This document shows positions 2,172 to 61,782 of a stretch of 64,000 nt of DNA, piece after piece. A program made the position numbers and the translations under genes. The notes below the pieces were generated by a model. The model did not search any database, was not told the DNA's origin, and was given only the letters and a program-made list of their open reading frames with translations. Every line of letters begins with the position of its first letter. Positions within the stretch are counted from its first letter, which is position 1. The stretch is taken from positions 19,000-82,999 of the forward strand of contig CAYXTA010000003.1 of the NCBI GenBank assembly GCA_964468315.1, given 5' to 3'. Origin of the DNA: an uncultured Candidatus Saccharibacteria bacterium (GTDB taxonomy: Bacteria; Patescibacteriota; Minisyncoccia; Phycocordibacterales; UBA9973).

Positions 2172-4292
2172 TTACGCTTTAGGTTGGAAGAAAGTTGGGT
2201 TTGCTTCTTTGATAGAAAGTGAGATCTTTCCTCTTTGTGGATCGATAGCGATGACTTTCACTGGCACGATCATACCTTCTTTTAGTATATCAGTTACTCG
2301 CTCGACACGGAATGGTGCGATTTCAGAAATGTGAACCATTCCGTCTGTGAAGTCATTAAGTCGTACAAATCCGCCGAAGTCTGCAAGCTTCACTATCTCT
2401 CCTTGAAGAATTTCCCCTACTTTAAATTCGTGTGTCATTTCTTCTACGATTTGTTTTGCTTTTCCTGCTGAACCATCACGACCAGTGAAGTACACAGTTC
2501 CGTCGTCTTCGATAGTTATTTCTGCACCAGTCCTTTCTTTAATATCTTTAATTACTTTTCCTCCACTTCCTATAACTCCGCCTATTTGTTCTGGTTTGAT
2601 TTTGATAATTAAAATTTCCGGAGCATTTGGAGAAATCGTCGCACGAGGAGCACTAATTTCTTTTTGTATAGTATCGAGGATTGTGAGTCTAGCTTTTTTA
2701 CTTTGTGCCATAGCTTCACTTAATATTTTTATTGGCACACCATCGACTTTTACATCGAGTTGTATTGCAGTTATTCCTTCTCTTGTTCCTGCGACTTTGA
2801 AATCCATGTCACCATGGTGATCTTCTGGTCCTTGAATGTCAGTTAATATTTTGTATGCATTATCATTTTCATACATGAGCCCCATCGCAATTCCAGCTAC
2901 AGGATTTTTTATTGGAACACCAGCATCCATGAGCGCGAGCGTTGAAGCACAAATACTTGCTTGTGAAGTGGAACCATTTGATGCCATTGATTCAGAAACG
3001 ATACGAATAGTGTAAGGAAAAATTTCTTTTTCTGGAAGAACCATGAGTAATGCTTTTTCTGCGAGTGCTCCGTGTCCTATCTCACGACGATTTGTCATTC
3101 CACTTCTTCCTGGTTCTCCTGCAGAGAATGGAGGAAAATTATAGTGATGCATAAATCTTCTTGAAGTTTGTAAATCCATTCCATTCACTTCTTGTTTATC
3201 TTCAGGACCACCGAGTGTGAGTGCAGAGAGTACATGTGTGCCTCCGCGATAAAATATTCCTGAGCCGTGTAAAATCTTTGAAAGATTTCCTGCTTGCGCA
3301 TAGAGTTCACGAACTTCATCCATCGCTCTTCCGTCTGCTCTGCGATTTTCTTTGATAGCTTTTTCATGAAGCATATCATTTTCTGTTTCATCAAAAATGT
3401 CGTCTTCTAGTTGAAAATCTTTTTTATCTGTTCCTACATATTTTTCTTTTACTAAGTTATTCCACTCACTGTGAAGTTCATCTATTTTCTTTTTCCCTGC
3501 TCCAGCAAAAATAGCACTTTCCATTTTTGGTAAAATATTTTCTTTGAAAAGGTTCAAACTTTCTTCACTTATTTTTTCGTGTTCGATAACTCTTTTTTCA
3601 TGACCGATTTCTTTTTGAATATTTTTTTGGAATTCTTCGAGTTTGGTGATTTCTTTACTTGCGAGTTCTAATGCTTCTGTGAGCTCTTCTTCTTTTGCTT
3701 GACGAGCTGCTGCTTCGATCATGTTTATTGTTCCTTCTCTTCCACAGACAGTGAGATCAAATTTGTATGGATACTCTTCTTGTCTTTTTGTTGTAGGAAT
3801 ATTTATTGCTAAATTTTCATCATCGTATTTTCCAACACGTACACAACCTATTGGTCCCTTCCATGGAATATTTGAAACGACGAGTGCGAGTGATGCAGCA
3901 TTCACTGCGAGCATCGCTGGATCATTGTCGTCACATGCGATTACAGTTACGATGACTTGTACTGCATGTCGCATTTTTTGGTCAAAGAGTGGGCGGATAG
4001 TTCTGTCGATTACGCGTGATGCGAGTATCGCTTCATTAGATGGTTTACCTTCACGACGTACATATTGTGAACCTAATATTTTTCCTGATGCATAAAATTT
4101 TTCTGCGTAGTCTACGGTAAGATTAAAAAATCCTAAACCTGCTTGCTTATCTTTACTCATACATGCAGTTGCCAAGACTATTGTTTCACCGTATTTCAAC
4201 ATCACTGATCCATGCGCTTGGTCAGTTAAATCTGAAAAAATAGCGGTCATGACCTTCCCACCGATTTCTACTTGATACTCTTTTTTATTCAT
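2172..4292 (-). CDS. pnp: polyribonucleotide nucleotidyltransferase (PNPase)
   Basis: 706 aa; two RNase PH domains, KH and S1 domains (GGVIGSGGKVIKDI..., FKVGEILQGEIVKLADFGGFVRL). Confidence 0.95.
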   Translation of the reverse strand: MNKKEYQVEIGGKVMTAIFSDLTDQAHGSVMLKYGETIVLATACMSKDKQAGLGFFNLTVDYAEKFYASGKILGSQYVRREGKPSNEAILASRVIDRTIRPLFDQKMRHAVQVIVTVIACDDNDPAMLAVNAASLALVVSNIPWKGPIGCVRVGKYDDENLAINIPTTKRQEEYPYKFDLTVCGREGTINMIEAAARQAKEEELTEALELASKEITKLEEFQKNIQKEIGHEKRVIEHEKISEESLNLFKENILPKMESAIFAGAGKKKIDELHSEWNNLVKEKYVGTDKKDFQLEDDIFDETENDMLHEKAIKENRRADGRAMDEVRELYAQAGNLSKILHGSGIFYRGGTHVLSALTLGGPEDKQEVNGMDLQTSRRFMHHYNFPPFSAGEPGRSGMTNRREIGHGALAEKALLMVLPEKEIFPYTIRIVSESMASNGSTSQASICASTLALMDAGVPIKNPVAGIAMGLMYENDNAYKILTDIQGPEDHHGDMDFKVAGTREGITAIQLDVKVDGVPIKILSEAMAQSKKARLTILDTIQKEISAPRATISPNAPEILIIKIKPEQIGGVIGSGGKVIKDIKERTGAEITIEDDGTVYFTGRDGSAGKAKQIVEEMTHEFKVGEILQGEIVKLADFGGFVRLNDFTDGMVHISEIAPFRVERVTDILKEGMIVPVKVIAIDPQRGKISLSIKEANPTFFQPKA

Positions 4293-25329: not shown

Positions 25330-26532
25330 TTATTCTGTGTCTTCTGTCTTTTCAATAATTTCTTCTGCTTCTTCTGCGATTTCTACTTTTTCTCCGTCAG
25401 TTGAAGCGACTTCACCACCCTTACCTTTGATATCGATTCTCCAACCAGTGAGCTTTGCAGCGAGGCGGACATTTTGTCCTCCTTTACCGATAGCGAGTGA
25501 TAGTTGATCTTCAGCAACTTCAATGACTGCTTTGTGTTCTTTTTCATCTACTTCGATAGTCAAAACTTTCGCAGGAGAGATAGCATTTGATACATATTCT
25601 TTCGGATCAGTAGACCAAGGGATGATATCTATTTTTTCATTTGAAAGTTCACTTGTAATAGTATTTACACGAGTACCTTTTTGTCCGACACAAGATCCGA
25701 CTGGGTCGATGTGTTCATCGTTTGAGAAGACAGCAATCTTTGAACGACTACCTGCTTCACGAGCAATACTTTTTATTTCTACAACTCCATTTGTAACTTC
25801 AGGAGCTTCAAGTGCAAAAAGTTTTTCCAAGAATTTAGGATGTGTACGTGAAAGGCGGAGGTTGATTCCACGAGGAGATTCTTCTACAGAATACAAATAT
25901 GCACGGATTCTTTGTCCTTGTCGGAAAAATTCTCCAGGGATTTGTTCTTCTGTTGGAAGCACACCTGTTGCTCTGTTGAAATCTATGTATAGATTTCCTC
26001 TTTCTATTTTTTGTACAACACCAGAAATAATTTCTCCTTCTTTTGTGCCGTATTCATCCATGATAGATGTACGTTCTGCTTCGCGAATACGTTGAATAAT
26101 AACTTGCTTTGCAGTTTGTGCAGCGATACGTCCGTAATCATCTTTTTGTTCAAGCATAAAAACCATTTCATCATTGAGTTCAACTTCCTTTTTCATTTTT
26201 TTAGCATCCTCAACCAAGATATGATGTTCAGGATTAAATCTTGGTCTTTCGTCACCATCTTCTTGTACATCGTATTCTTCCTCACTTTCTTCTTCACCCT
26301 CTTTTGGAATTTTTACTATTGATTCATCTACTACAATTTTGACTTGATAGAAATCAGTCTGACCAGTTTCCATATCAAATTTTGCACGGATGATTTGTCC
26401 TTTCTTTCCGTAATCTTTTTTATATGCAGCAGCCATAGCTTGTTCTATAGCCTCGATTATTTTTTCTTTTGGTATTTTGCGCTCTTCTTCTAATTGCTCA
26501 AGAGCTGACTTCATTGTTTTTAGGTCTAACAT
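25330..26532 (-). CDS. nusA: transcription termination/antitermination factor NusA
   Basis: N-terminal domain, S1 (GEIISGVVQKIERGNLYIDF), two KH (GSCVGQKGTRV; AIGKGGQNVRLAAKLTGW). Confidence 0.93.
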   Translation of the reverse strand: MLDLKTMKSALEQLEEERKIPKEKIIEAIEQAMAAAYKKDYGKKGQIIRAKFDMETGQTDFYQVKIVVDESIVKIPKEGEEESEEEYDVQEDGDERPRFNPEHHILVEDAKKMKKEVELNDEMVFMLEQKDDYGRIAAQTAKQVIIQRIREAERTSIMDEYGTKEGEIISGVVQKIERGNLYIDFNRATGVLPTEEQIPGEFFRQGQRIRAYLYSVEESPRGINLRLSRTHPKFLEKLFALEAPEVTNGVVEIKSIAREAGSRSKIAVFSNDEHIDPVGSCVGQKGTRVNTITSELSNEKIDIIPWSTDPKEYVSNAISPAKVLTIEVDEKEHKAVIEVAEDQLSLAIGKGGQNVRLAAKLTGWRIDIKGKGGEVASTDGEKVEIAEEAEEIIEKTEDTE

Positions 26533-42564: not shown

Positions 42565-43539
42565 ATGAAAAAAAATATTATTTACAGTCCATTACTGGAT
42601 ATTGAAATCATGCGACTTTTACTGGATTATGTAAAAGAGTATGACCAAAAAGCTAATTTGGAATTTAAATCATCATCACCACTACAAGACATTTTGAAAG
42701 ACATTCCTATTGATCTTTATCAATCTGTGCAGGATTTAAAAGGTGAACCTTTTTTGTTTGAAAGTATTATTGGAGACCACTCCTCAAAGAAATTATTTGA
42801 TGCTTTTAAAGAAAGAAACAATTTTAGTCTTAATATTCCATTACCACCCAAACCTTTTGAAAATACTATTTTTGTTACGGCAGCAGCCATTATGGAATTC
42901 ATCCAGACATGGCCAGGTTTTTGTAGATCTAAAAAACAAAATTACAATATTGTAAAAGAGGATTCATTTTCTGGTACAGAAATAGAAGTTGCGGGTTTTT
43001 GTTTGCATAATGTGAATGTCGCGATTAAGACTGGAACACAAAGCACCGAAACAGTTTCAGCTACCCTTGAATTGGGTAATAATTTTTCTTTGAACTTTTG
43101 TGATTTATCTGCTTTTGAAAATGGAAAAAGCTTACGTGATGAAAAAGCCGATTTTGCAACACTGCTTAATTTGATAGATGTAAAAACAATTTCTTCACAC
43201 AAGAAGTCATACTTGTATTGTCCATGCATTGAAGTAAGTGAGAATGTAAAAAATCATTTAAAAGGATTGTCTTATAAAAACACAGTTTTAAATCCATTTT
43301 TGGAAAAAGTTGAAATTACTTTTTCTGAAACCTTTGGAAAATTAAAATTATCAGAGAAAGGTGTTGAAATGCGAGTTGAAACAGTTGCTTCTGCAAGAAT
43401 GGTTTTTAGTGCTAGGGCTACTCAGGAAACAACTCCACCACCTCTGGTTATTAAGAATGGTTTAGTTCTTCGTCTGTATCATGACGAAACACTTATTTTT
43501 ATTGCGTATATTCCGCAGGAAAATTTTCAAATAATTTAA
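42565..43539 (+). CDS. hypothetical protein (324 aa)
   Basis: ORF only. Confidence 0.5.
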   Translation: MKKNIIYSPLLDIEIMRLLLDYVKEYDQKANLEFKSSSPLQDILKDIPIDLYQSVQDLKGEPFLFESIIGDHSSKKLFDAFKERNNFSLNIPLPPKPFENTIFVTAAAIMEFIQTWPGFCRSKKQNYNIVKEDSFSGTEIEVAGFCLHNVNVAIKTGTQSTETVSATLELGNNFSLNFCDLSAFENGKSLRDEKADFATLLNLIDVKTISSHKKSYLYCPCIEVSENVKNHLKGLSYKNTVLNPFLEKVEITFSETFGKLKLSEKGVEMRVETVASARMVFSARATQETTPPPLVIKNGLVLRLYHDETLIFIAYIPQENFQII

Positions 43540-44576: not shown

Positions 44577-44590
44577 TACATTAAATTTTA

Positions 44591-44617
44591 AAAAATCCCC
44601 GAAAGGGGATTTTTGTT
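44591..44617 (+). terminator. terminator aaaaatccccgaaaggggatttttgtt (copy 1 of 2 identical)
   Basis: identical 27-mer recurs at 54614..54640. Confidence 0.7.
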
Positions 44618-44645
44618 TGACTATTTTAATTTTATTTGGTATTGT
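44617..44645 (+). promoter_or_regulatory. promoter TTGACT-17-TATTGT
   Basis: overlaps the terminator T-run; precedes leader repeat copy 1. Confidence 0.5.
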
Positions 44646-44648
44646 TTT

Positions 44649-44683
44649 TTTGAAATTAAAATAGTATAAACGTTATTTAAAAA
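44649..44683 (+). repeat. 35-bp leader repeat copy 1 (tttgaaattaaaatagtataaacgttatttaaaaa)
   Basis: identical to 45683..45717; ends 8 nt before the ATG. Confidence 0.9.
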
Positions 44684-44691
44684 TAGAAAAA

Positions 44692-45597
44692 ATGGAAAGA
44701 AAAAAAATAATGATGAAAGACATTGCCAACAATCCTCAATGTCGAGAATTGGTTAATGTGCACAACATGATTCAGATGCATTTTGAAAAATGCTTTAAGG
44801 AAGTGGGAATACCGATTCTTTCTTTTAGTACTGGTACAGCAAATTGCTTTAAAGAAATTTCGGAAATGACCGGTGTGTCTTTGGTTAAAACCTGTAGTTA
44901 TGATCAATTAAATATACCTGTTCCTTCTGTCGAAGGTCATGCGGGTAAACTTCATTTGGTACTTATTTTAGAAACACCAGTTTTCTTTTGTGAAGGTAGA
45001 GTTCAGCTTTCTGATGGATTTACTCCTGCAGAAGTAGTGCTCCTTACTCGTGCATTAGGATTGCTTGGTGTTAAAAAATCAATTTTTATCAATGCTTCTG
45101 GAACTGTAAACCTTGAAAAATATCAATCCGGTGATTTTGTACTTGTTTCGGATCATATTAATTTTTCTGGACAAAGTCCTTTGTGTGGTAGAGGCGCACC
45201 ATTTTTTGATAGCTTTACTGATTTATCAAAAGTTCACAATGTGTGTCTCCAAAAAGTTTTTATGGAAGTTGCTAAAACAATAAATATAAAAATTAAAAGT
45301 GGAGCGATATATGGTCTGACAAAAACAGCAAAAGAGTTTGAAACTCCCGCAGAAGTTAGAATGTTTAAAATGCTTGGTGTAGATTTGCTCGGCATGTCTT
45401 CAGTACTTGAATCGATAGCTTGTGTAAATATGGGTATTGAAGCAATGATTCTTTCTGTTGTGACTAATGAAGGTGTTGGGCTTGGTCCTTCAGTGAGTCA
45501 TGAGGAAAATCTTAAAATTGTTGAAACTTGTGGCAAACAACTTGCAAGACTTATTTATGGATTTGTAGATAAACTTGAGATTGTTGCTGAATCATAG
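44692..45597 (+). CDS. purine nucleoside phosphorylase (PunA/MTAP-type PNP family)
   Basis: GHAGKLHLV...LLGVKK.I.TNASG...DHINFSG.SPL.G...GP.FET.AE...LGVDLLGMSSVLESIAC pattern. Confidence 0.85.
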   Translation: MERKKIMMKDIANNPQCRELVNVHNMIQMHFEKCFKEVGIPILSFSTGTANCFKEISEMTGVSLVKTCSYDQLNIPVPSVEGHAGKLHLVLILETPVFFCEGRVQLSDGFTPAEVVLLTRALGLLGVKKSIFINASGTVNLEKYQSGDFVLVSDHINFSGQSPLCGRGAPFFDSFTDLSKVHNVCLQKVFMEVAKTINIKIKSGAIYGLTKTAKEFETPAEVRMFKMLGVDLLGMSSVLESIACVNMGIEAMILSVVTNEGVGLGPSVSHEENLKIVETCGKQLARLIYGFVDKLEIVAES

Positions 45598-45616
45598 TTT
45601 TAATATTTTTTTTTAC

Positions 45617-45648
45617 AAAACTCTGTCGTTTTTAGACAGAGTTTTTTT
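45617..45648 (+). terminator. terminator (aaaactctgtc-gtttttag-acagagtttt + T-run)
   Basis: 11-bp stem. Confidence 0.6.
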
Positions 45649-45650
45649 GT

Positions 45651-45679
45651 TTGACTTTTTATGACATATTTAGTATTGT
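45651..45679 (+). promoter_or_regulatory. promoter TTGACT-17-TATTGT
   Basis: same -35/-10 hexamers as 44617..44645, followed by leader repeat copy 2. Confidence 0.5.
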
Positions 45680-45682
45680 TCA

Positions 45683-45717
45683 TTTGAAATTAAAATAGTA
45701 TAAACGTTATTTAAAAA
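45683..45717 (+). repeat. 35-bp leader repeat copy 2
   Basis: identical to 44649..44683; ends 9 nt before the ATG. Confidence 0.9.
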
Positions 45718-45726
45718 CAAAAGACA

Positions 45727-46077
45727 ATGGAACAAAAACCAAAATTACCAATACCTAAGGATGTTATGTCTATTATTTTAAACCTTGAAGATTGTATTCA
45801 AAGGTTAGCAAGAGCAGAAATACCTTTTGAGTTGATTCACTTACTCACAACTCCTGTAAAAGAATTAGATGGTTTATCAGAAATTGCAAAAAACGCAGTT
45901 TATAAAACAACTGGTAAAAAAAATGAAAGCAATGAAGATATTTCTTTGTTTGACATTATCAAAAAAACCAAAAAAGATTTTTTAAAAACCATTAGGGTTG
46001 GTGAAGCTAGAGTAAAAGAAATTGAAGATTTTTTACGCTCACATGGCCTTGATTTCAAGCCAGAAAGAGCAGAATAA
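45727..46077 (+). CDS. stand-alone RNA polymerase alpha-subunit C-terminal-domain-like protein (116 aa)
   Basis: ELIHLLTTPVKELDGLSEIAKNAV and DFLKTIRVGEARVKEIEDFLRSHGL align to E. coli alpha-CTD [21 protein letters not shown] and [24 protein letters not shown]. Confidence 0.55.
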   Translation: MEQKPKLPIPKDVMSIILNLEDCIQRLARAEIPFELIHLLTTPVKELDGLSEIAKNAVYKTTGKKNESNEDISLFDIIKKTKKDFLKTIRVGEARVKEIEDFLRSHGLDFKPERAE

Positions 46078-46150
46078 ATTAAAAAATTAGGTGATAGTTT
46101 AGTTAAATTTGGTTAAGTTAAATTTAGTTGATTAAAAATCACCTATAAAC

Positions 46151-46180
46151 TCCCCTAGTTGCGTTAGGGGAGTTTTTTAT
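46151..46180 (+). terminator. terminator (ctcccct-agttgcgtt-aggggag + T6)
   Basis: 7-bp GC stem. Confidence 0.55.
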
Positions 46181-46181
46181 T

Positions 46182-46209
46182 TGACAAAATCTCCCAAAAG
46201 CGTAGAGTG
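46182..46209 (+). promoter_or_regulatory. promoter TTGACA-16-TAGAGT
   Basis: adjacent to the terminator. Confidence 0.45.
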
Positions 46210-46240
46210 AAATTAAACTAACCTTTTAAAACTTAAGAAA

Positions 46241-47113
46241 ATGAATAAAAATATGGACAATACAGTTGCTGAGTTTCTATCTCTAGAACCAGTTAAACGC
46301 AATGAATTATTTGCAAGAGAATATGATGTTTACCCAAATTTAAAATCACGAGCCAAACTCTTTTTATCTTTGCCGGTAGAAGAATCAGCTCGGATATTGT
46401 CTGAAGTTGATACTATTACGATGAATCAGTTTTTATTTGATCATATTTTTAAAATGCCAAATAAAAAACTTTTTGTTTTCAGTGAATTATTGCCGAAAGT
46501 TTTACCAATTGGTCGTTTAGTAGATTTAACTTTGGATTTAAATGGAACTATTCCTAGCGTTCAAGATTCTTTCTGCCTTATGCCTATTGAAACGATAACT
46601 GCAATTATTGATGAAGGTGTTTATGAAAATGAATTTCATGAAGAAAAAATAGGTGAAATTGCAAAAAAAATCGAATTTATTGAAATTGAAAAATTAAACA
46701 CAATACTTTTGAAAATAAAAGTAGAAAGTTTTAAGAAAATTGTTGAAGATACTTTTTTTTCTGGCTACGGCTTAGAGGGGAAGAAAAGAATATTGAACCA
46801 TGTTTCAATTCTTGAAGACAATAAAAGAATTGCAAAACTTTGCTTAGGAGTTAAAAAAGAAATTGCTCTGCGTATTGTTAAAGGAATCAAAGACAAACAA
46901 AAACAAAAACAAGTTTTAAAATTGCTTCCGCAAACTTACAAAGATTCATTTTTTAATAAAACTTCAAATTCAAAGAAAACTGTTTTAAGGGAATCTGAAA
47001 TTGATGTAACTAAGCTAAATATGAAAGCGAAAAAGAATTTCTTTAGAAGATTCCCTAAAAGTAAGCAAGTTTCAAAACTTTCAATTGTTGAAAAGATTGA
47101 AATATTTGCTTGA
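46241..47113 (+). CDS. hypothetical protein (290 aa)
   Basis: ORF only. Confidence 0.5.
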   Translation: MNKNMDNTVAEFLSLEPVKRNELFAREYDVYPNLKSRAKLFLSLPVEESARILSEVDTITMNQFLFDHIFKMPNKKLFVFSELLPKVLPIGRLVDLTLDLNGTIPSVQDSFCLMPIETITAIIDEGVYENEFHEEKIGEIAKKIEFIEIEKLNTILLKIKVESFKKIVEDTFFSGYGLEGKKRILNHVSILEDNKRIAKLCLGVKKEIALRIVKGIKDKQKQKQVLKLLPQTYKDSFFNKTSNSKKTVLRESEIDVTKLNMKAKKNFFRRFPKSKQVSKLSIVEKIEIFA

Positions 47114-47121
47114 TCTTGTTT

Positions 47122-47153
47122 AAAAGCCTGTCGCACATCTGACAGGCTTTTTT
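47122..47153 (+). terminator. terminator (agcctgtc-gcacatct-gacaggct + T6)
   Basis: 8-bp stem. Confidence 0.6.
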
Positions 47154-47155
47154 AT

Positions 47156-47184
47156 TTGCAAAAAAGCCTTAAATGTTTTATATT
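47156..47184 (+). promoter_or_regulatory. promoter TTGCAA-17-TATATT upstream of fusA
   Basis: read directly. Confidence 0.45.
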
Positions 47185-47255
47185 GTAAGTATTAGAGCTT
47201 TATCTTTTTAAGGCTTTTTATTTTGTTTATTTATCATTAATTATTAAAAATATAT

Positions 47256-49552: not shown

Positions 49553-49711
49553 ATGAAAATATTGTTAATAATAAATATTTTTGAAAAAACTCTAGGACCT
49601 TTATGGTTTCTAATTATTTTTTTCAGTGTTCTAGCTTTGTTTATAGTCATTTTATTTAAACCTTGGCAAAAAAATAAAAAGCTTAAGCAACCAAAAAACG
49701 AAAGAAATTAA
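49553..49711 (+). CDS. possible small membrane protein (52 aa)
   Basis: MKILLIINIFEKTLGPLWFLIIFFSVLALFIVILFKPWQKNKKLKQPKNERN, one TM; below ORF-track cutoff. Confidence 0.3.
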   Translation: MKILLIINIFEKTLGPLWFLIIFFSVLALFIVILFKPWQKNKKLKQPKNERN

Positions 49712-49758
49712 AACTCACAAAAATTCACTAAATACTAAACAAAAAAACGCAAAAACGT

Positions 49759-50079
49759 ATGAAACACTTAGAGATTTTTACTAGATTGAAAAACGGAGAG
49801 ATTATTTTTATTGAAAGTTGTAACATTGAAAAGAAAAAATTCTTTGGTTCTACTCTTCATTCTAGAATTTTAAAATTAAAACATTACAAATTCGATGAAA
49901 TAGACGATTCTTGGAGTTTACTTGGTGATAATGAAAAATTAGAAATTCTAAAAAAGCATTATAAATCTTTAGATTATTATGATGTTAATTTAACAAGTAC
50001 AAAAACAAGACATAGTCTCCTTACGGATTCTATTCTAATACAACCTTTCTTAAACTCTCGTTCTAAAAAAGTTGCTTAA
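49759..50079 (+). CDS. hypothetical protein (106 aa)
   Basis: ORF only; sits between fusA and tuf. Confidence 0.4.
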   Translation: MKHLEIFTRLKNGEIIFIESCNIEKKKFFGSTLHSRILKLKHYKFDEIDDSWSLLGDNEKLEILKKHYKSLDYYDVNLTSTKTRHSLLTDSILIQPFLNSRSKKVA

Positions 50080-50096
50080 AATCTAAAACCAAAAAA

Positions 50097-50345
50097 ATGG
50101 AACCAAATGTATATGATCTTTCAAAAAGTTTTGTGAATAAAGAAAAGTCCTGTGTACATGTACCTGTTCAAATTTTTGGTCCCAGATCAAATTGGGTGGA
50201 CATTCCACTTGTTTTTGAGCTTTCTATTCTTTTGGAAAATCATTACAAGGATTTAATGTTTACTGGTAAGTATGCTGTACCACAAGAAAAAAAAATAAAA
50301 GAGTATCTTTTTTATTTTAAACAAAATAAAGCCGACCCGAAATAA
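50097..50345 (+). CDS. hypothetical protein (82 aa)
   Basis: ORF only; stop overlaps the terminator hairpin. Confidence 0.4.
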   Translation: MEPNVYDLSKSFVNKEKSCVHVPVQIFGPRSNWVDIPLVFELSILLENHYKDLMFTGKYAVPQEKKIKEYLFYFKQNKADPK

Positions 50346-54736: not shown

Positions 54737-55324
54737 GTGGAAACAACAACAATTCTTGGTATGTTGGGAGGATTGCTGTCTTTGATAGCATATTTTCCTT
54801 ACTGGTATTCGATTTTTACTGGACATACCCGCCCGCAACGCGCAAGTTGGCTTATTTGGATCTTTTCTGATTCTTTGGTACTAGCAACATCAGGTGCTCT
54901 TGGTGCAAGAGATAGTTTATGGGTTCCTGTTGCTTATGTTATTGGAACAATAATTACTTTTATTTTTTCAATTAAAAAAGGACAAGGAGGAACACATTGG
55001 TTCGATATAGTCTGTCTTGGTATAACTTTTATGTCTGGTGTGCTTTGGTACATCACAGGAAACCCTTTTCAGTCTCTTTTGATTAATTTAACCATAGTAG
55101 CAATTGGAACAATTCCAACCCTATTAAAGGTATCAAAAGATCCATATTCAGAAAATATGACAGGTTTTATTTTCTGGACATCTGGAAGTTTCTGTAGCTT
55201 TTTAGCGGTAATGCTTGGAAATCGAATAACCATAGAGTTATGGTTGCAACCTTTGTGGTTTCTTGGACTTCAATTTCTTATGATGATGTTTATTATCATA
55301 TATCGAAGTTTTAAACGGAACTAA
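54737..55324 (+). CDS. polytopic membrane protein (195 aa, about 6 TM)
   Basis: hydrophobic helices throughout; inserted between rplB and rpsS. Confidence 0.55.
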   Translation: METTTILGMLGGLLSLIAYFPYWYSIFTGHTRPQRASWLIWIFSDSLVLATSGALGARDSLWVPVAYVIGTIITFIFSIKKGQGGTHWFDIVCLGITFMSGVLWYITGNPFQSLLINLTIVAIGTIPTLLKVSKDPYSENMTGFIFWTSGSFCSFLAVMLGNRITIELWLQPLWFLGLQFLMMMFIIIYRSFKRN

Positions 55325-55369
55325 ATAGATTAAAATCCTCGGACTGATACAGTTCGGGGATTTTTTATT

Positions 55370-55780
55370 TTGTTATATAATGGTTGTATGGAAAAAATGT
55401 CAGAAAAGAAAAGGTTTTCATTGGTAGCTCGGGCGAAGAGTTTTACTCATGCGGTGCGAGGTGTTTTTGTTTTTTTGAGGAGTACACACAATGCATGGGT
55501 GCATTTATTTGTTACTTTTATTGTTTTATTTTTAGGATTCTTTTTTAATATTTCTGCGACAGAATGGATAGAGTTAATCTTCGCAATAGGTTTTGTTTTT
55601 GTAGCTGAGGCCTTCAATACAGCCATAGAAATAGACATGGATCTCACAAGTCCAGAATATCATCCTTATGCTCGTGATACGAAGGACGTAGCTGCTGGGG
55701 CAGTGCTTATAGCTGTGAAAGTTGCAGTACTCGTTGGTCTCATTATTTTTGTTCCAAAATTTATTTCTTTTTTTAGTTAA
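55370..55780 (+). CDS. dgkA: prokaryotic diacylglycerol kinase/undecaprenol kinase family (DgkA)
   Basis: RSTHNAWVH...VAEAFNTAIEIDMDL...RDTKDVAAGAVL pattern, 3 TM. Confidence 0.8.
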   Translation: MLYNGCMEKMSEKKRFSLVARAKSFTHAVRGVFVFLRSTHNAWVHLFVTFIVLFLGFFFNISATEWIELIFAIGFVFVAEAFNTAIEIDMDLTSPEYHPYARDTKDVAAGAVLIAVKVAVLVGLIIFVPKFISFFS

Positions 55781-55872
55781 AACTCATTTTTATTTTTGAC
55801 ATTTTTTTTGTTTAGGTGTATAAATGTATTGAAAAATAATTCTTTTATAAACCTTCTAAAAATGAAAAACCT

Positions 55873-56379
55873 ATGGGAAATTTCACCGGAACAATGAATC
55901 CTGTTGCAGACAATTTATTACTTAAAAGAACTCCTGATTTTGAACCTAAAAAACTAATTGATTTTGTTGAAAACAGGAATCAAAGACATGTAATTTTACC
56001 TAAAAAAAGGTTACGTAATAATATTTTAAAAAACCATGTAGACGCAAGGTTTAAAAAAAATTACGTTGATCAATCCACAAATGAAAAAACACGAAAAATC
56101 ATTTTAGAATCTGAAGAACTTGCTGAAAAGAAAAGTTACAAGTTTTTAAAAGAAATGAATAAGTGTTTTGATCAGTTATCAAAAAATGAGATTTTAGAAA
56201 TAACATCTCAAATCAAACTCCTTACCTCTAATAATTGGACTTATTTTTGTTACAAAAAAGACTTTATTTCTATTGCTCCTAAAAATAGAAAGATATATCT
56301 TCGTTCAAAGAAAAGAGAAATGGGTCCTGGTTCTCGTGTTTTTATAATTAAAGATATCGGTAAAAAGAAATTAAAATAA
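55873..56379 (+). CDS. basic hypothetical protein (168 aa)
   Basis: ORF only. Confidence 0.45.
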   Translation: MGNFTGTMNPVADNLLLKRTPDFEPKKLIDFVENRNQRHVILPKKRLRNNILKNHVDARFKKNYVDQSTNEKTRKIILESEELAEKKSYKFLKEMNKCFDQLSKNEILEITSQIKLLTSNNWTYFCYKKDFISIAPKNRKIYLRSKKREMGPGSRVFIIKDIGKKKLK

Positions 56380-56383
56380 ACTA

Positions 56384-56414
56384 AAAAGACCCTAAAAATA
56401 AAGGGTCTTTTTTA
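56384..56414 (+). terminator. terminator (gaccct-aaaaataa-agggtc + T6)
   Basis: read directly. Confidence 0.55.
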
Positions 56415-56415
56415 T

Positions 56416-56444
56416 TTGACATAGTCATTTTGATATGCTAATAT
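56416..56444 (+). promoter_or_regulatory. promoter TTGACA-17-TAATAT
   Basis: consensus-like hexamers. Confidence 0.55.
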
Positions 56445-56489
56445 ATATACGAAATAGTTATTTAATATAAACCATAAAACAAAAGACTT

Positions 56490-56960
56490 ATGAACATTAC
56501 GACTGCCGAAGTAAAAGAAAAAACATTTACAAAAGAAAATGGAATATGGACAATCCATCCGTACCAAAAACAATCAGAAATAATTAAGAGTTACAAAGAA
56601 TTAAAGGTTTTTGAAACAAAAGGTAATTTCTCAAAAGATTTTGTAGTGAATTCCAGTTACATTGGAATGAGCCCAATTTCCTTTGAAGAAACGAAAACAA
56701 GATCTCTTGTTTCTAAAAAAATAATTGAACGGCTTTATAATTTTGGATTTTATCCAGAAATTGAAATCGTAAAAATTGTAAATCATATTTTTATTAAAGG
56801 TGAAAGTAACATGTCATATTATTTTCGTTACCAAAGTTGTTTGTTTGGTTTATTAAAAACCAATCAAACAAACCGTAATTTTTTAAGAAAAGAAGAAATT
56901 ACAAAAAAGACTATCGTTCCGGATGGTGGAATTATTTTGGATTTAGTAAACAAAAATTAA
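56490..56960 (+). CDS. hypothetical protein (156 aa)
   Basis: ORF only. Confidence 0.45.
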   Translation: MNITTAEVKEKTFTKENGIWTIHPYQKQSEIIKSYKELKVFETKGNFSKDFVVNSSYIGMSPISFEETKTRSLVSKKIIERLYNFGFYPEIEIVKIVNHIFIKGESNMSYYFRYQSCLFGLLKTNQTNRNFLRKEEITKKTIVPDGGIILDLVNKN

Positions 56961-61077: not shown

Positions 61078-61782
61078 ATGTTAGTAGAAAAAAGTACCTT
61101 ATTTGTGATTGCCTCAGTGGTATTATTTACCATTTATTGTCTTATTGTTTTTTTAATAAAAAAAGCAAGAAGATTAAAATTGTTCCGAATTGCCATTGAA
61201 AATGGCGTTAATGCTGATGTAAGAAATATCTTTGATCAGCTGGCTGTTGCTTCTGCAAAATTGAATGACCGGGAGTATAAATCACTTTTTAAATGTTTTG
61301 GTAGTATTTACGCAAAATCACTTACAGAATCATTGCAAGACTCTTCAATATTGATTGCTACACGATTAAGTTTCTTGAATAACTTTTTAAGTTATTACCC
61401 AAGAACTTTTATTTCACCCTTTGTTTGTTTAAAATTTGCAGAAGAGCTTCAAAATGATTCAAATAGTCGTTTGTTAGATTTACAAACTCTACATACGATA
61501 ATAAATCGTTTTGCTAATAATCCTGAAGAGAGTAATGAACATGATTATCGTAACGTAAGAGATTTATACATTGTTGTTTTTAATAAAGTCATCAATAAAA
61601 AACTTGAGGATATTTCTTTTAAAGACACGGAATCTTTTCTCTCTATTTTTAATAATTTCTTTTATATTAGTAAAGAAAATGAAATTCTTGCTGAGAATAT
61701 TCGTCAAAAAGCCAAAGAAGTACTTTATTTACGTGTAACCTCACTTGAGATTGAATTATTAAAAGAAAAAAAGGTTAGCTAG
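61078..61782 (+). CDS. membrane-anchored hypothetical protein (234 aa) inserted between rplE and the S14 gene
   Basis: N-terminal TM LFVIASVVLFTIYCLIVFLI; no recognisable domain. Confidence 0.5.
   Translation: MLVEKSTLFVIASVVLFTIYCLIVFLIKKARRLKLFRIAIENGVNADVRNIFDQLAVASAKLNDREYKSLFKCFGSIYAKSLTESLQDSSILIATRLSFLNNFLSYYPRTFISPFVCLKFAEELQNDSNSRLLDLQTLHTIINRFANNPEESNEHDYRNVRDLYIVVFNKVINKKLEDISFKDTESFLSIFNNFFYISKENEILAENIRQKAKEVLYLRVTSLEIELLKEKKVS

Follow-up and report, generated by a model that had tools for sequence, protein, structure and literature searches.

A free-standing protein with a predicted, highly divergent RNA polymerase alphaCTD-type fold in the str operon of a Patescibacteria lineage

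We describe a small protein, X, of which residues 33-111 or thereabouts very probably adopt a highly divergent version of the fold of the RNA polymerase alpha subunit C-terminal domain (alphaCTD), as judged from structure prediction, and which may act in trans as an untethered transcription adaptor. The gene lies in a 64,000-nucleotide stretch of DNA (the window), where it sits in the str operon, after rpsG and before fusA. The host is an ultra-small Nomurabacteria/Paceibacterota (Patescibacteria) bacterium with a GC content of 30-37%, and its SecY is closest, at 79% identity, to those of MAGs from this group. As the earlier note on this DNA had stated, the alpha N-terminal domain (NTD) is absent: the whole of X is 116 amino acids long and has no PF01193 or PF01000 match in Pfam, and without that domain X has no tether to RNA polymerase. 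The features of the locus are collected in Table 1.

Table 1. Features of the X locus, in window coordinates
Feature	Position	Strand	Remarks
Purine-nucleoside-phosphorylase (PNP)-like gene, variable upstream neighbour	44692-45597	+	PF01048, E 2.8e-27; NF006054, E 2.6e-48, below curated cutoff
Intrinsic-terminator-like hairpin and T-run, 11-bp stem	45617-45645	+	Predicted to end the upstream PNP-like gene and insulate X from rpsL-rpsG read-through
Sigma-70-type promoter-like site, TTGACT-17-TATTGT	45651-45679	+	Consensus match
A-rich leader of X	45680-45726	+	Unstructured, MFE 0 kcal/mol
ORF X, 116 aa, free-standing alphaCTD-like protein (predicted)	45727-46077	+	ATG start; identical protein on seven contigs; dN/dS 0.15-0.58
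N-terminal extension, aa 1-32	45727-45822	+	Two short predicted helices, low confidence (pLDDT 47-63); most variable part of X
AlphaCTD-like double helix-hairpin-helix domain (predicted), aa 33-111	45823-46059	+	Corresponds to E. coli alpha, about 249-315
Lineage-specific loop insertion in hairpin 1, K65-E70 (KNESNE)	45919-45936	+	pLDDT <50 at residues 65-68
Intrinsic-terminator-like hairpin and T-run, 13-bp stem	46147-46175	+	Predicted to end the X transcription unit
Variable downstream neighbour: promoter-like site (46181-46208) and 290-aa ORF (46241-47113)	46181-47113	+	

X is a genuine gene and no assembly quirk. The open reading frame was recovered at the coordinates, strand and ATG start given before, and the contigs that encode the identical protein come from independent metagenomic sources (JGI 3300043411, NCBI GCA_020050275.1 and several SRA runs). 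Six homologs with 56-99% identity were found, and every full-length homolog and context that we looked at preserves the frame, P0007 being a 59-residue fragment. Pairwise Nei-Gojobori comparison of five alleles gave the dN/dS range listed in Table 1, and on this ground X codes for protein and is subject to purifying selection, albeit relaxed. The small size of the family and its want of a Pfam domain would suit a non-functional or spurious reading frame, but such a reading is highly improbable, given the preserved frame, the dN/dS values, the conserved promoter and terminators and a coherent fold prediction from two models. X is net neutral (pI 6.8) and its 111-residue alleles are basic (pI about 9). 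Residues 1-32 matched no family in Pfam, and DNA identity between allele groups is 90-97% over the last 20 codons.

Consensus sites predict that X forms its own, monocistronic transcription unit. The promoter that had been ascribed to it is borne out by a promoter-like site directly upstream of the leader and by terminator-like hairpins on either side, all of them consensus matches. The same layout of terminator, TTTGAC promoter and A-rich leader precedes X in other strains, and the 81-bp promoter and leader are 81-86% identical across allele groups, compared with 70-79% for the coding region. The surrounding 4 kb hold 8 terminator-like sites where 1.7 would be expected. Rfam and tRNA scans returned nothing near the locus.

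We compared an AF2 model of X (mean pLDDT 69, and 74-80 over most of the domain) with the PDB using Foldseek. The top 36 matches are all RNA polymerase alpha chains, with E-values of 0.01-1 and a probability of 1.00. Against isolated CTDs the model gives TM-scores of 0.65-0.84, and it superposes on the B. subtilis domains 1z3e_B and 3gfk_B with an rmsd of 1.9 Å over 73 columns, the highest TM-score being that for 1z3e_B. Helix-hairpin-helix (HhH) domains of the Mag2, XPF/Hef, ERCC1 and ComEA types appear in the same list at E 2.7-6.9 with probabilities of at most 0.15; the ComEA-related structure 2duy ranks 46th (E 6.9, probability 0.08). P0008, a distant homolog, was modelled with AF2 from the 7-sequence family alignment that also served for X; its model reaches a pLDDT of 82-90 in the C-terminal domain and produces the same Foldseek ranking. 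A generic ComEA/XPF-type HhH identity was considered and rejected on its far poorer structural match (E 4.7-6.9, probability 0.08-0.15) and on the lack of any HHH match in Pfam.

Sequence comparison points to a remote homology with the PF03118 domain that is modest but consistent over the whole domain. A match to PF03118 had been named in the earlier note as a check, and X does not give one: hmmscan against Pfam found no PF03118 match at E <= 10 for X, P0003, P0004, P0006 or P0008 (gathering score 23.8 bits; the positive control, P0009, scored 452 bits), and a Pfam scan of X and its homologs found no HhH family (HHH, HHH_3 or HHH_5) either. When X was searched against the PDB with phmmer, the top 20 matches were nonetheless all RpoA (E 0.03-0.4), placing X 74-110 onto E. 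coli alpha 279-315, and the 7-sequence family profile again found RpoA, with X 16-109 lying on alpha 225-313. The only NCBIfam matches of X are two RpoA equivalog models, NF003513 and NF003519, the former at E 0.0021 and aligning X 12-110 to model positions 225-315. All single-sequence E-values are marginal (0.002-0.4).

Profile comparisons gave clearer values. Using hhalign, the close family alone matched an alphaCTD alignment (the E. coli CTD and 10 repeats of P0009) at P 1.6e-5 with a probability of 79%, and the family with P0008 added matched it at P 7.2e-6 with a probability of 84% over 65 columns. The aligned region is X 38-111 and alpha 252-315, so both HhH motifs are covered. Both of the similarity segments quoted in the earlier note are therefore real, being recovered by phmmer and by the family profile and hhalign. 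Scored with an HMM of the same alphaCTD alignment, X reaches 20.2 bits, a value attained by none of 2000 shuffled sequences (maximum 16.0), and by these sequence scores the similarity of X to alphaCTD exceeds chance. The description of X as a detached alphaCTD-like protein is thus upheld by the predicted fold, by remote homology and by the fact that all near-significant matches are alphaCTD, and qualified by the unmatched PF03118 HMM. With the family profile as query, an exhaustive HMMER run over 1.84 billion representatives returned four proteins only: P0006, the fragment P0007, P0008 and, as the sole protein outside the family, P0009 (E 1.3e-5). Because no RpoA was found at E <= 0.001 in this profile search, we reject a recent origin of X by copying of any rpoA 3' end, that of its host included.

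We next compared X with E. coli alpha residue by residue, in the register of the hhalign alignment and using what we take to be the standard E. coli numbering and determinant lists (265 determinant: R265, N268, C269, G296, K298, S299). The opening segment of the domain, PFELIHLLTTPVKELDGLS, aligns with a 16-residue stretch of alpha, and helix 1 (LSEIAKNAV) aligns with alpha LTVRSANCL. N56 corresponds to N268 and is invariant in the family. The position of R265 is I53 in X and I, N, V or M across the family; that of A267 is an invariant Lys (K55), that of C269 an Ala, and that of S299 an invariant Arg (R95), while the position of K298 varies (A/K/M/V). G92 corresponds to G296 in all members but P0001, a near-identical natural allele that carries G92D at this hairpin glycine. 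X therefore departs from the 265 determinant at R265, C269, K298 and S299 and keeps N268 and G296.

Residues I72-F85 correspond to alpha H276-L289 (helices 2 and 3), with D76 equivalent to D280 and T81 to T285, and where alpha has the 287-determinant residues E286, V287 and E288, X has K, K and D. The earlier note had described a roughly 20-residue Lys-rich insertion between the two similarity segments; most of this is in fact helices 2 and 3 (alpha 275-288), and the true insertion in hairpin 1 is about 6 residues, 4 residues shorter in the 111-residue alleles and even shorter in P0008. X matches alpha best in hairpin 2 and helix 4, where the two share the LKT motif, G92 (G296), E98-I99 (E302-I303), D101, L103, S105 and G107-L108. 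Within the family the blocks LS..AKNA and EIEDFL.SHGLDF are invariant, and the most conserved blocks overall are TPVK.L.GLS..AKNA.Y.T.GK and R.KEIEDFL.SHGLDFKPERAE. On the domain, these blocks lie at the N-terminal end of helix 1 and in hairpin 2 and helix 4; in alpha, the corresponding parts make up the side that faces DNA and sigma-4.

In overall architecture, X is predicted to have the fold of RpoA alphaCTD (PF03118; PDB 1z3e_B, 3gfk_B, 1lb2, 3n97 and 3k4g), with an N-terminal non-standard helix followed by four helices that make up two HhH motifs. The residues common to the two, in alpha numbering, are P256, V257, L262, N268, D280, T285, L290-K291-T292, G296, E302-I303, D305, L307, S309 and G311-L312. 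In RpoA the domain is fused to the alpha NTD through a linker, whereas X is free-standing, falls below the PF03118 detection threshold and evolves far faster than any RpoA. It also differs in its hairpin-1 insertion, its 32-residue N-terminal extension, a conserved KPERAE tail and the substitutions at the 265 determinant.

Detached alphaCTD proteins are already known from phages, and the concept is not new. The top structural matches of X in BFVD are proteins of 108-139 residues annotated "RNA polymerase, alpha subunit, C-terminal" (A0A6J5QDR9 and others; E 0.023-0.8, the best at probability 1.00). Like X, these proteins and others from Bacillus phage vB_BmeM-Goe8 (gp005, 210 residues), Ruegeria phage vB_RpoS-V16 (gp23) and Rhodococcus phage Finch (240 residues) have no alpha NTD, and they share with X the detached fold, small size and a short N-terminal extension. 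A tblastn search with the E. coli CTD recognises the alphaCTD in Goe8 gp005 and V16 gp23, and the BFVD proteins bear that annotation, whereas X is not recognisable in this way; moreover, they are phage-borne, and the gene for X has a chromosomal, syntenic place in a CPR bacterium. No significant sequence relative of X was found in phage GenBank, IMG/VR or PHROGs, and PADLOC returned nothing significant. We know of no detached alphaCTD protein of phages with a tested function, and a limited literature search on detached alphaCTD proteins or CPR rpoA found nothing relevant. X is set apart from them by its position below Pfam detection, the absence of R265, its chromosomal and syntenic setting in a CPR bacterium and its quick evolution.

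The metagenomic protein P0009 (1031 residues, 12 tandem PF03118 repeats) resembles X in using the alphaCTD module outside RpoA. It differs in being multi-repeat and probably secreted or membrane-anchored, and its repeats are canonical PF03118, most with Arg at the R265 position. Together with its strong PF03118 score it has a hydrophobic N-terminus, an unusual architecture for an alphaCTD domain. The (HhH)2 domains of ComEA and of XPF/ERCC1 type are, like X, small DNA-binding modules with paired HhH motifs, and differ from it by the poorer structural match and the missing Pfam HHH match given above. P0008 (L087 3737-4327; 196 residues, 31% identity to X) has about 70 extra N-terminal residues that look HTH-like by eye, with low AF2 confidence. 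This segment has no PDB or Pfam match and only a weak NCBIfam match to a Csa3-HTH model (E 0.042).

The X family has about 8 members, all in one narrow Nomurabacteria clade, and tblastn and family-pattern searches of GTDB genomes and representatives, IMG/VR, JGI metagenome contigs and phage GenBank found no further ones. It occupies the rpsG-fusA junction in all 8 readable contexts (L001, L002, L088, L089, L090, L174 and L175, plus L087, which encodes P0008); L176 and L177 show the fusA side only, and L173 reaches neither gene. X follows rpsG directly or follows rpsG and the PNP-like gene. The latter is confined to the 116-residue allele group, being present in L088, L174 and L175 and not in L001, L002, L089, L090 or L087. 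On the other side of X, L001, L002 and L173 have unrelated ORFs in place of the 290-residue one. Of the earlier view that X belongs to an inserted cassette, the variable neighbours stand; X itself is present at the junction in every readable context of its clade. The PNP-like gene scores 165 bits against an NCBIfam cut-off of 218 and has an N-terminal extension of about 65 residues. An OMP-decarboxylase gene lies between fusA and tuf in L087, and nucleotide-salvage genes thus recur among str-operon inserts.

A module of about 73 bp, made up of a terminator tail, a promoter (TTGACA-16-TAGAGT) and a leader, was found at window 46173-46245, at L001 9050-9121 and at L002 8622-8694 and 9781-9862, with 77-89% identity between strains. 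It occurs once in the window. Because it precedes unrelated coding sequences and the likeness stops at about the start codon, its sequence suggests that cassettes have been swapped behind a conserved promoter.

X evolves much faster than its surroundings. Between close strains, S12, S7, L28, an M50 protease and EF-G are 97.5-100% identical in protein sequence and X is 58-66% identical; in the more distant L087, EF-G is 90% and the M50 protease 75% identical, against 31% for P0008. Synonymous divergence (dS) between allele groups is 0.06-0.27 for the flanking genes and 0.48-0.87 for X, and this raised dS suggests old alleles exchanged by recombination, together with relaxed constraint.

The rpsG-fusA junction is an accessory-gene hotspot across the phylum. 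Among 65 related metagenomic loci with both genes, about 39 carry inserts of at least 150 bp and about 30 carry inserts of at least 450 bp, and 54 of the 67 insert ORFs of at least 60 residues are singletons. The inserts in related Paceibacteria loci (L093-L172; window 44577-47255) span 150-3000 bp, and by eye their cargo includes toxin-antitoxin-pair-like (L123/L169) and four-helix-bundle-like (L144/L167) ORFs. No diverged relatives of X or alphaCTD were found among the inserts of 39 other relatives. A translation-related role suggested by the str operon was rejected because unrelated genes are inserted at this junction generally, and the place of X in this operon therefore says little about a link to translation.

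Elsewhere in the window, the ribosomal-protein super-operon is repeatedly broken by orphan ORFs, with no Pfam match where tested. These are a 324-residue ORF before rpsL (42565-43539; absent in L001 and L002), three small ORFs between fusA and tuf (49553-50345), four ORFs between rplB and rpsS (54737-56960) and a 234-residue ORF between rplE and rpsN (61078-61782). In L087, rpsG is apparently split into ORFs of 89 and 56 residues (3053-3519; a frameshift or assembly error), and one metagenomic contig, L097, apparently has two tandem S7 (rpsG) copies (1636-2103 and 2212-2682).

The host rpoA does not lie within the window, nor was rpoA found within 10 kb downstream of secY in any of 80 related Paceibacteria loci; the contigs that carry the L18 gene of the window end too soon to show it. 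In L009 (11290-21269) and other secY loci (L007-L086), secY is followed by adk, map and unrelated genes, and the usual infA-rpsM-rpsK-rpsD-rpoA-rplQ block is missing there. A PG_binding_1 protein follows secY in the organism of the window (L004). NusA (25330-26532, minus strand; 399 residues with NTD, S1 and KH domains) is without the C-terminal acidic-repeat HhH domains, which in E. coli bind alphaCTD.

Our leading, still tentative, reading is that X is a divergent relative of the PF03118 domain acting as a small untethered adaptor in trans. From its sequence and model, the N-terminal end of helix 1 (LS..AKNA), hairpin 2 and helix 4 of X would together form an alphaCTD-type face. With this face X would contact AT-rich DNA or the DNA backbone, a partner in the transcription machinery, or both, and would thereby modulate transcription. 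We propose this face because the most conserved blocks correspond to the DNA- and sigma-4-facing side of alpha. The DNA contact would be non-canonical and probably of low specificity (K55, R95), or binding would be mainly to protein; such a contact, rather than reading of UP elements, is expected because the equivalent of R265 is missing. Canonical reading of UP elements by X is unlikely on sequence grounds, since it lacks R265 and one allele has Asp at the hairpin glycine, and competition for them in the canonical way is doubtful, as neither R265 nor K298 is kept. Mimicry of alpha by X, or competition with it, as put forward in the earlier note, is purely inferred. The fast divergence of X against its near-identical flanks and its place in an accessory hotspot are as compatible with a conflict or accessory role as with a regulatory one.

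Three other readings are unlikely, though each accounts for some of the evidence. As an alphaCTD decoy, the least unlikely of them, X would compete with the alphaCTD of the polymerase itself for sigma region 4, an activator or upstream DNA, which would damp promoters that depend on activators or UP elements. It is predicted to have the alphaCTD fold, could not assemble into RNA polymerase without an NTD, retains T285 as T81, and has acidic residues (E46, D48) where D259 and E261 sit in our own reading of the PV.ELD-L / PVDDLE-L register, D259 and E261 being what we take to be the sigma-4 contact of alpha. Against this, R265 is lost, neither K298 nor the 287-determinant residues are kept, D48 is Gln in the 111-residue alleles, and the absence of RpoA at E <= 0.001 from the exhaustive family-profile search speaks against a recent CTD copy. 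Slightly less probable is a generic HhH DNA binder outside transcription, such as a nucleoid-associated protein or a DNA-uptake or repair accessory that shares only the ancient HhH scaffold. HhH domains bind the DNA backbone non-specifically, which together with the AT-rich host and the partial retention of the alpha determinants would suit this role, but the ComEA, XPF/Hef and ERCC1 matches are far behind those to alphaCTD, Pfam gave no HhH family, and the alphaCTD matches cover the whole domain including its N-terminal non-HhH helix.

A gene derived from a phage or mobile element and lodged in a chromosomal hotspot, serving in host take-over, anti-defence or defence, is a little less probable again. 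The best BFVD matches are free-standing phage proteins, phages carry alphaCTD in non-alpha proteins such as Goe8 gp005 and V16 gp23, and the frequent, largely singleton inserts at the junction, the variable neighbours and the fast divergence of X are all in keeping with such an origin. Neither an integrase nor a tRNA nor repeats lie near the gene, however, and phage GenBank, IMG/VR, PHROGs and PADLOC yielded no relative by sequence. The gene also evolves with dN/dS below 1 and keeps the same site even in the relative with 90% EF-G and 75% M50 identity, so that it looks vertical. We regard as improbable a further reading in which X is a trans-acting alphaCTD surrogate (a "split alpha", with the CTD of the host alpha lost or degraded) or an antagonist or regulator that hijacks alphaCTD contact sites and reprograms the few promoters of its host; the narrow clade, fast evolution and loss of R265 all weaken it.

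At present X, as a candidate adaptor, is of value chiefly for annotation and as a lead, in that about 8 sequences of an orphan family now have a well-supported predicted fold. If X does engage alphaCTD partners or upstream DNA off the polymerase, it would be a simple natural case of transcription regulation by domain mimicry, set in the CPR/Patescibacteria, where transcription control is almost unknown, and it would represent a cellular counterpart of the uncharacterised detached alphaCTD proteins of phages.
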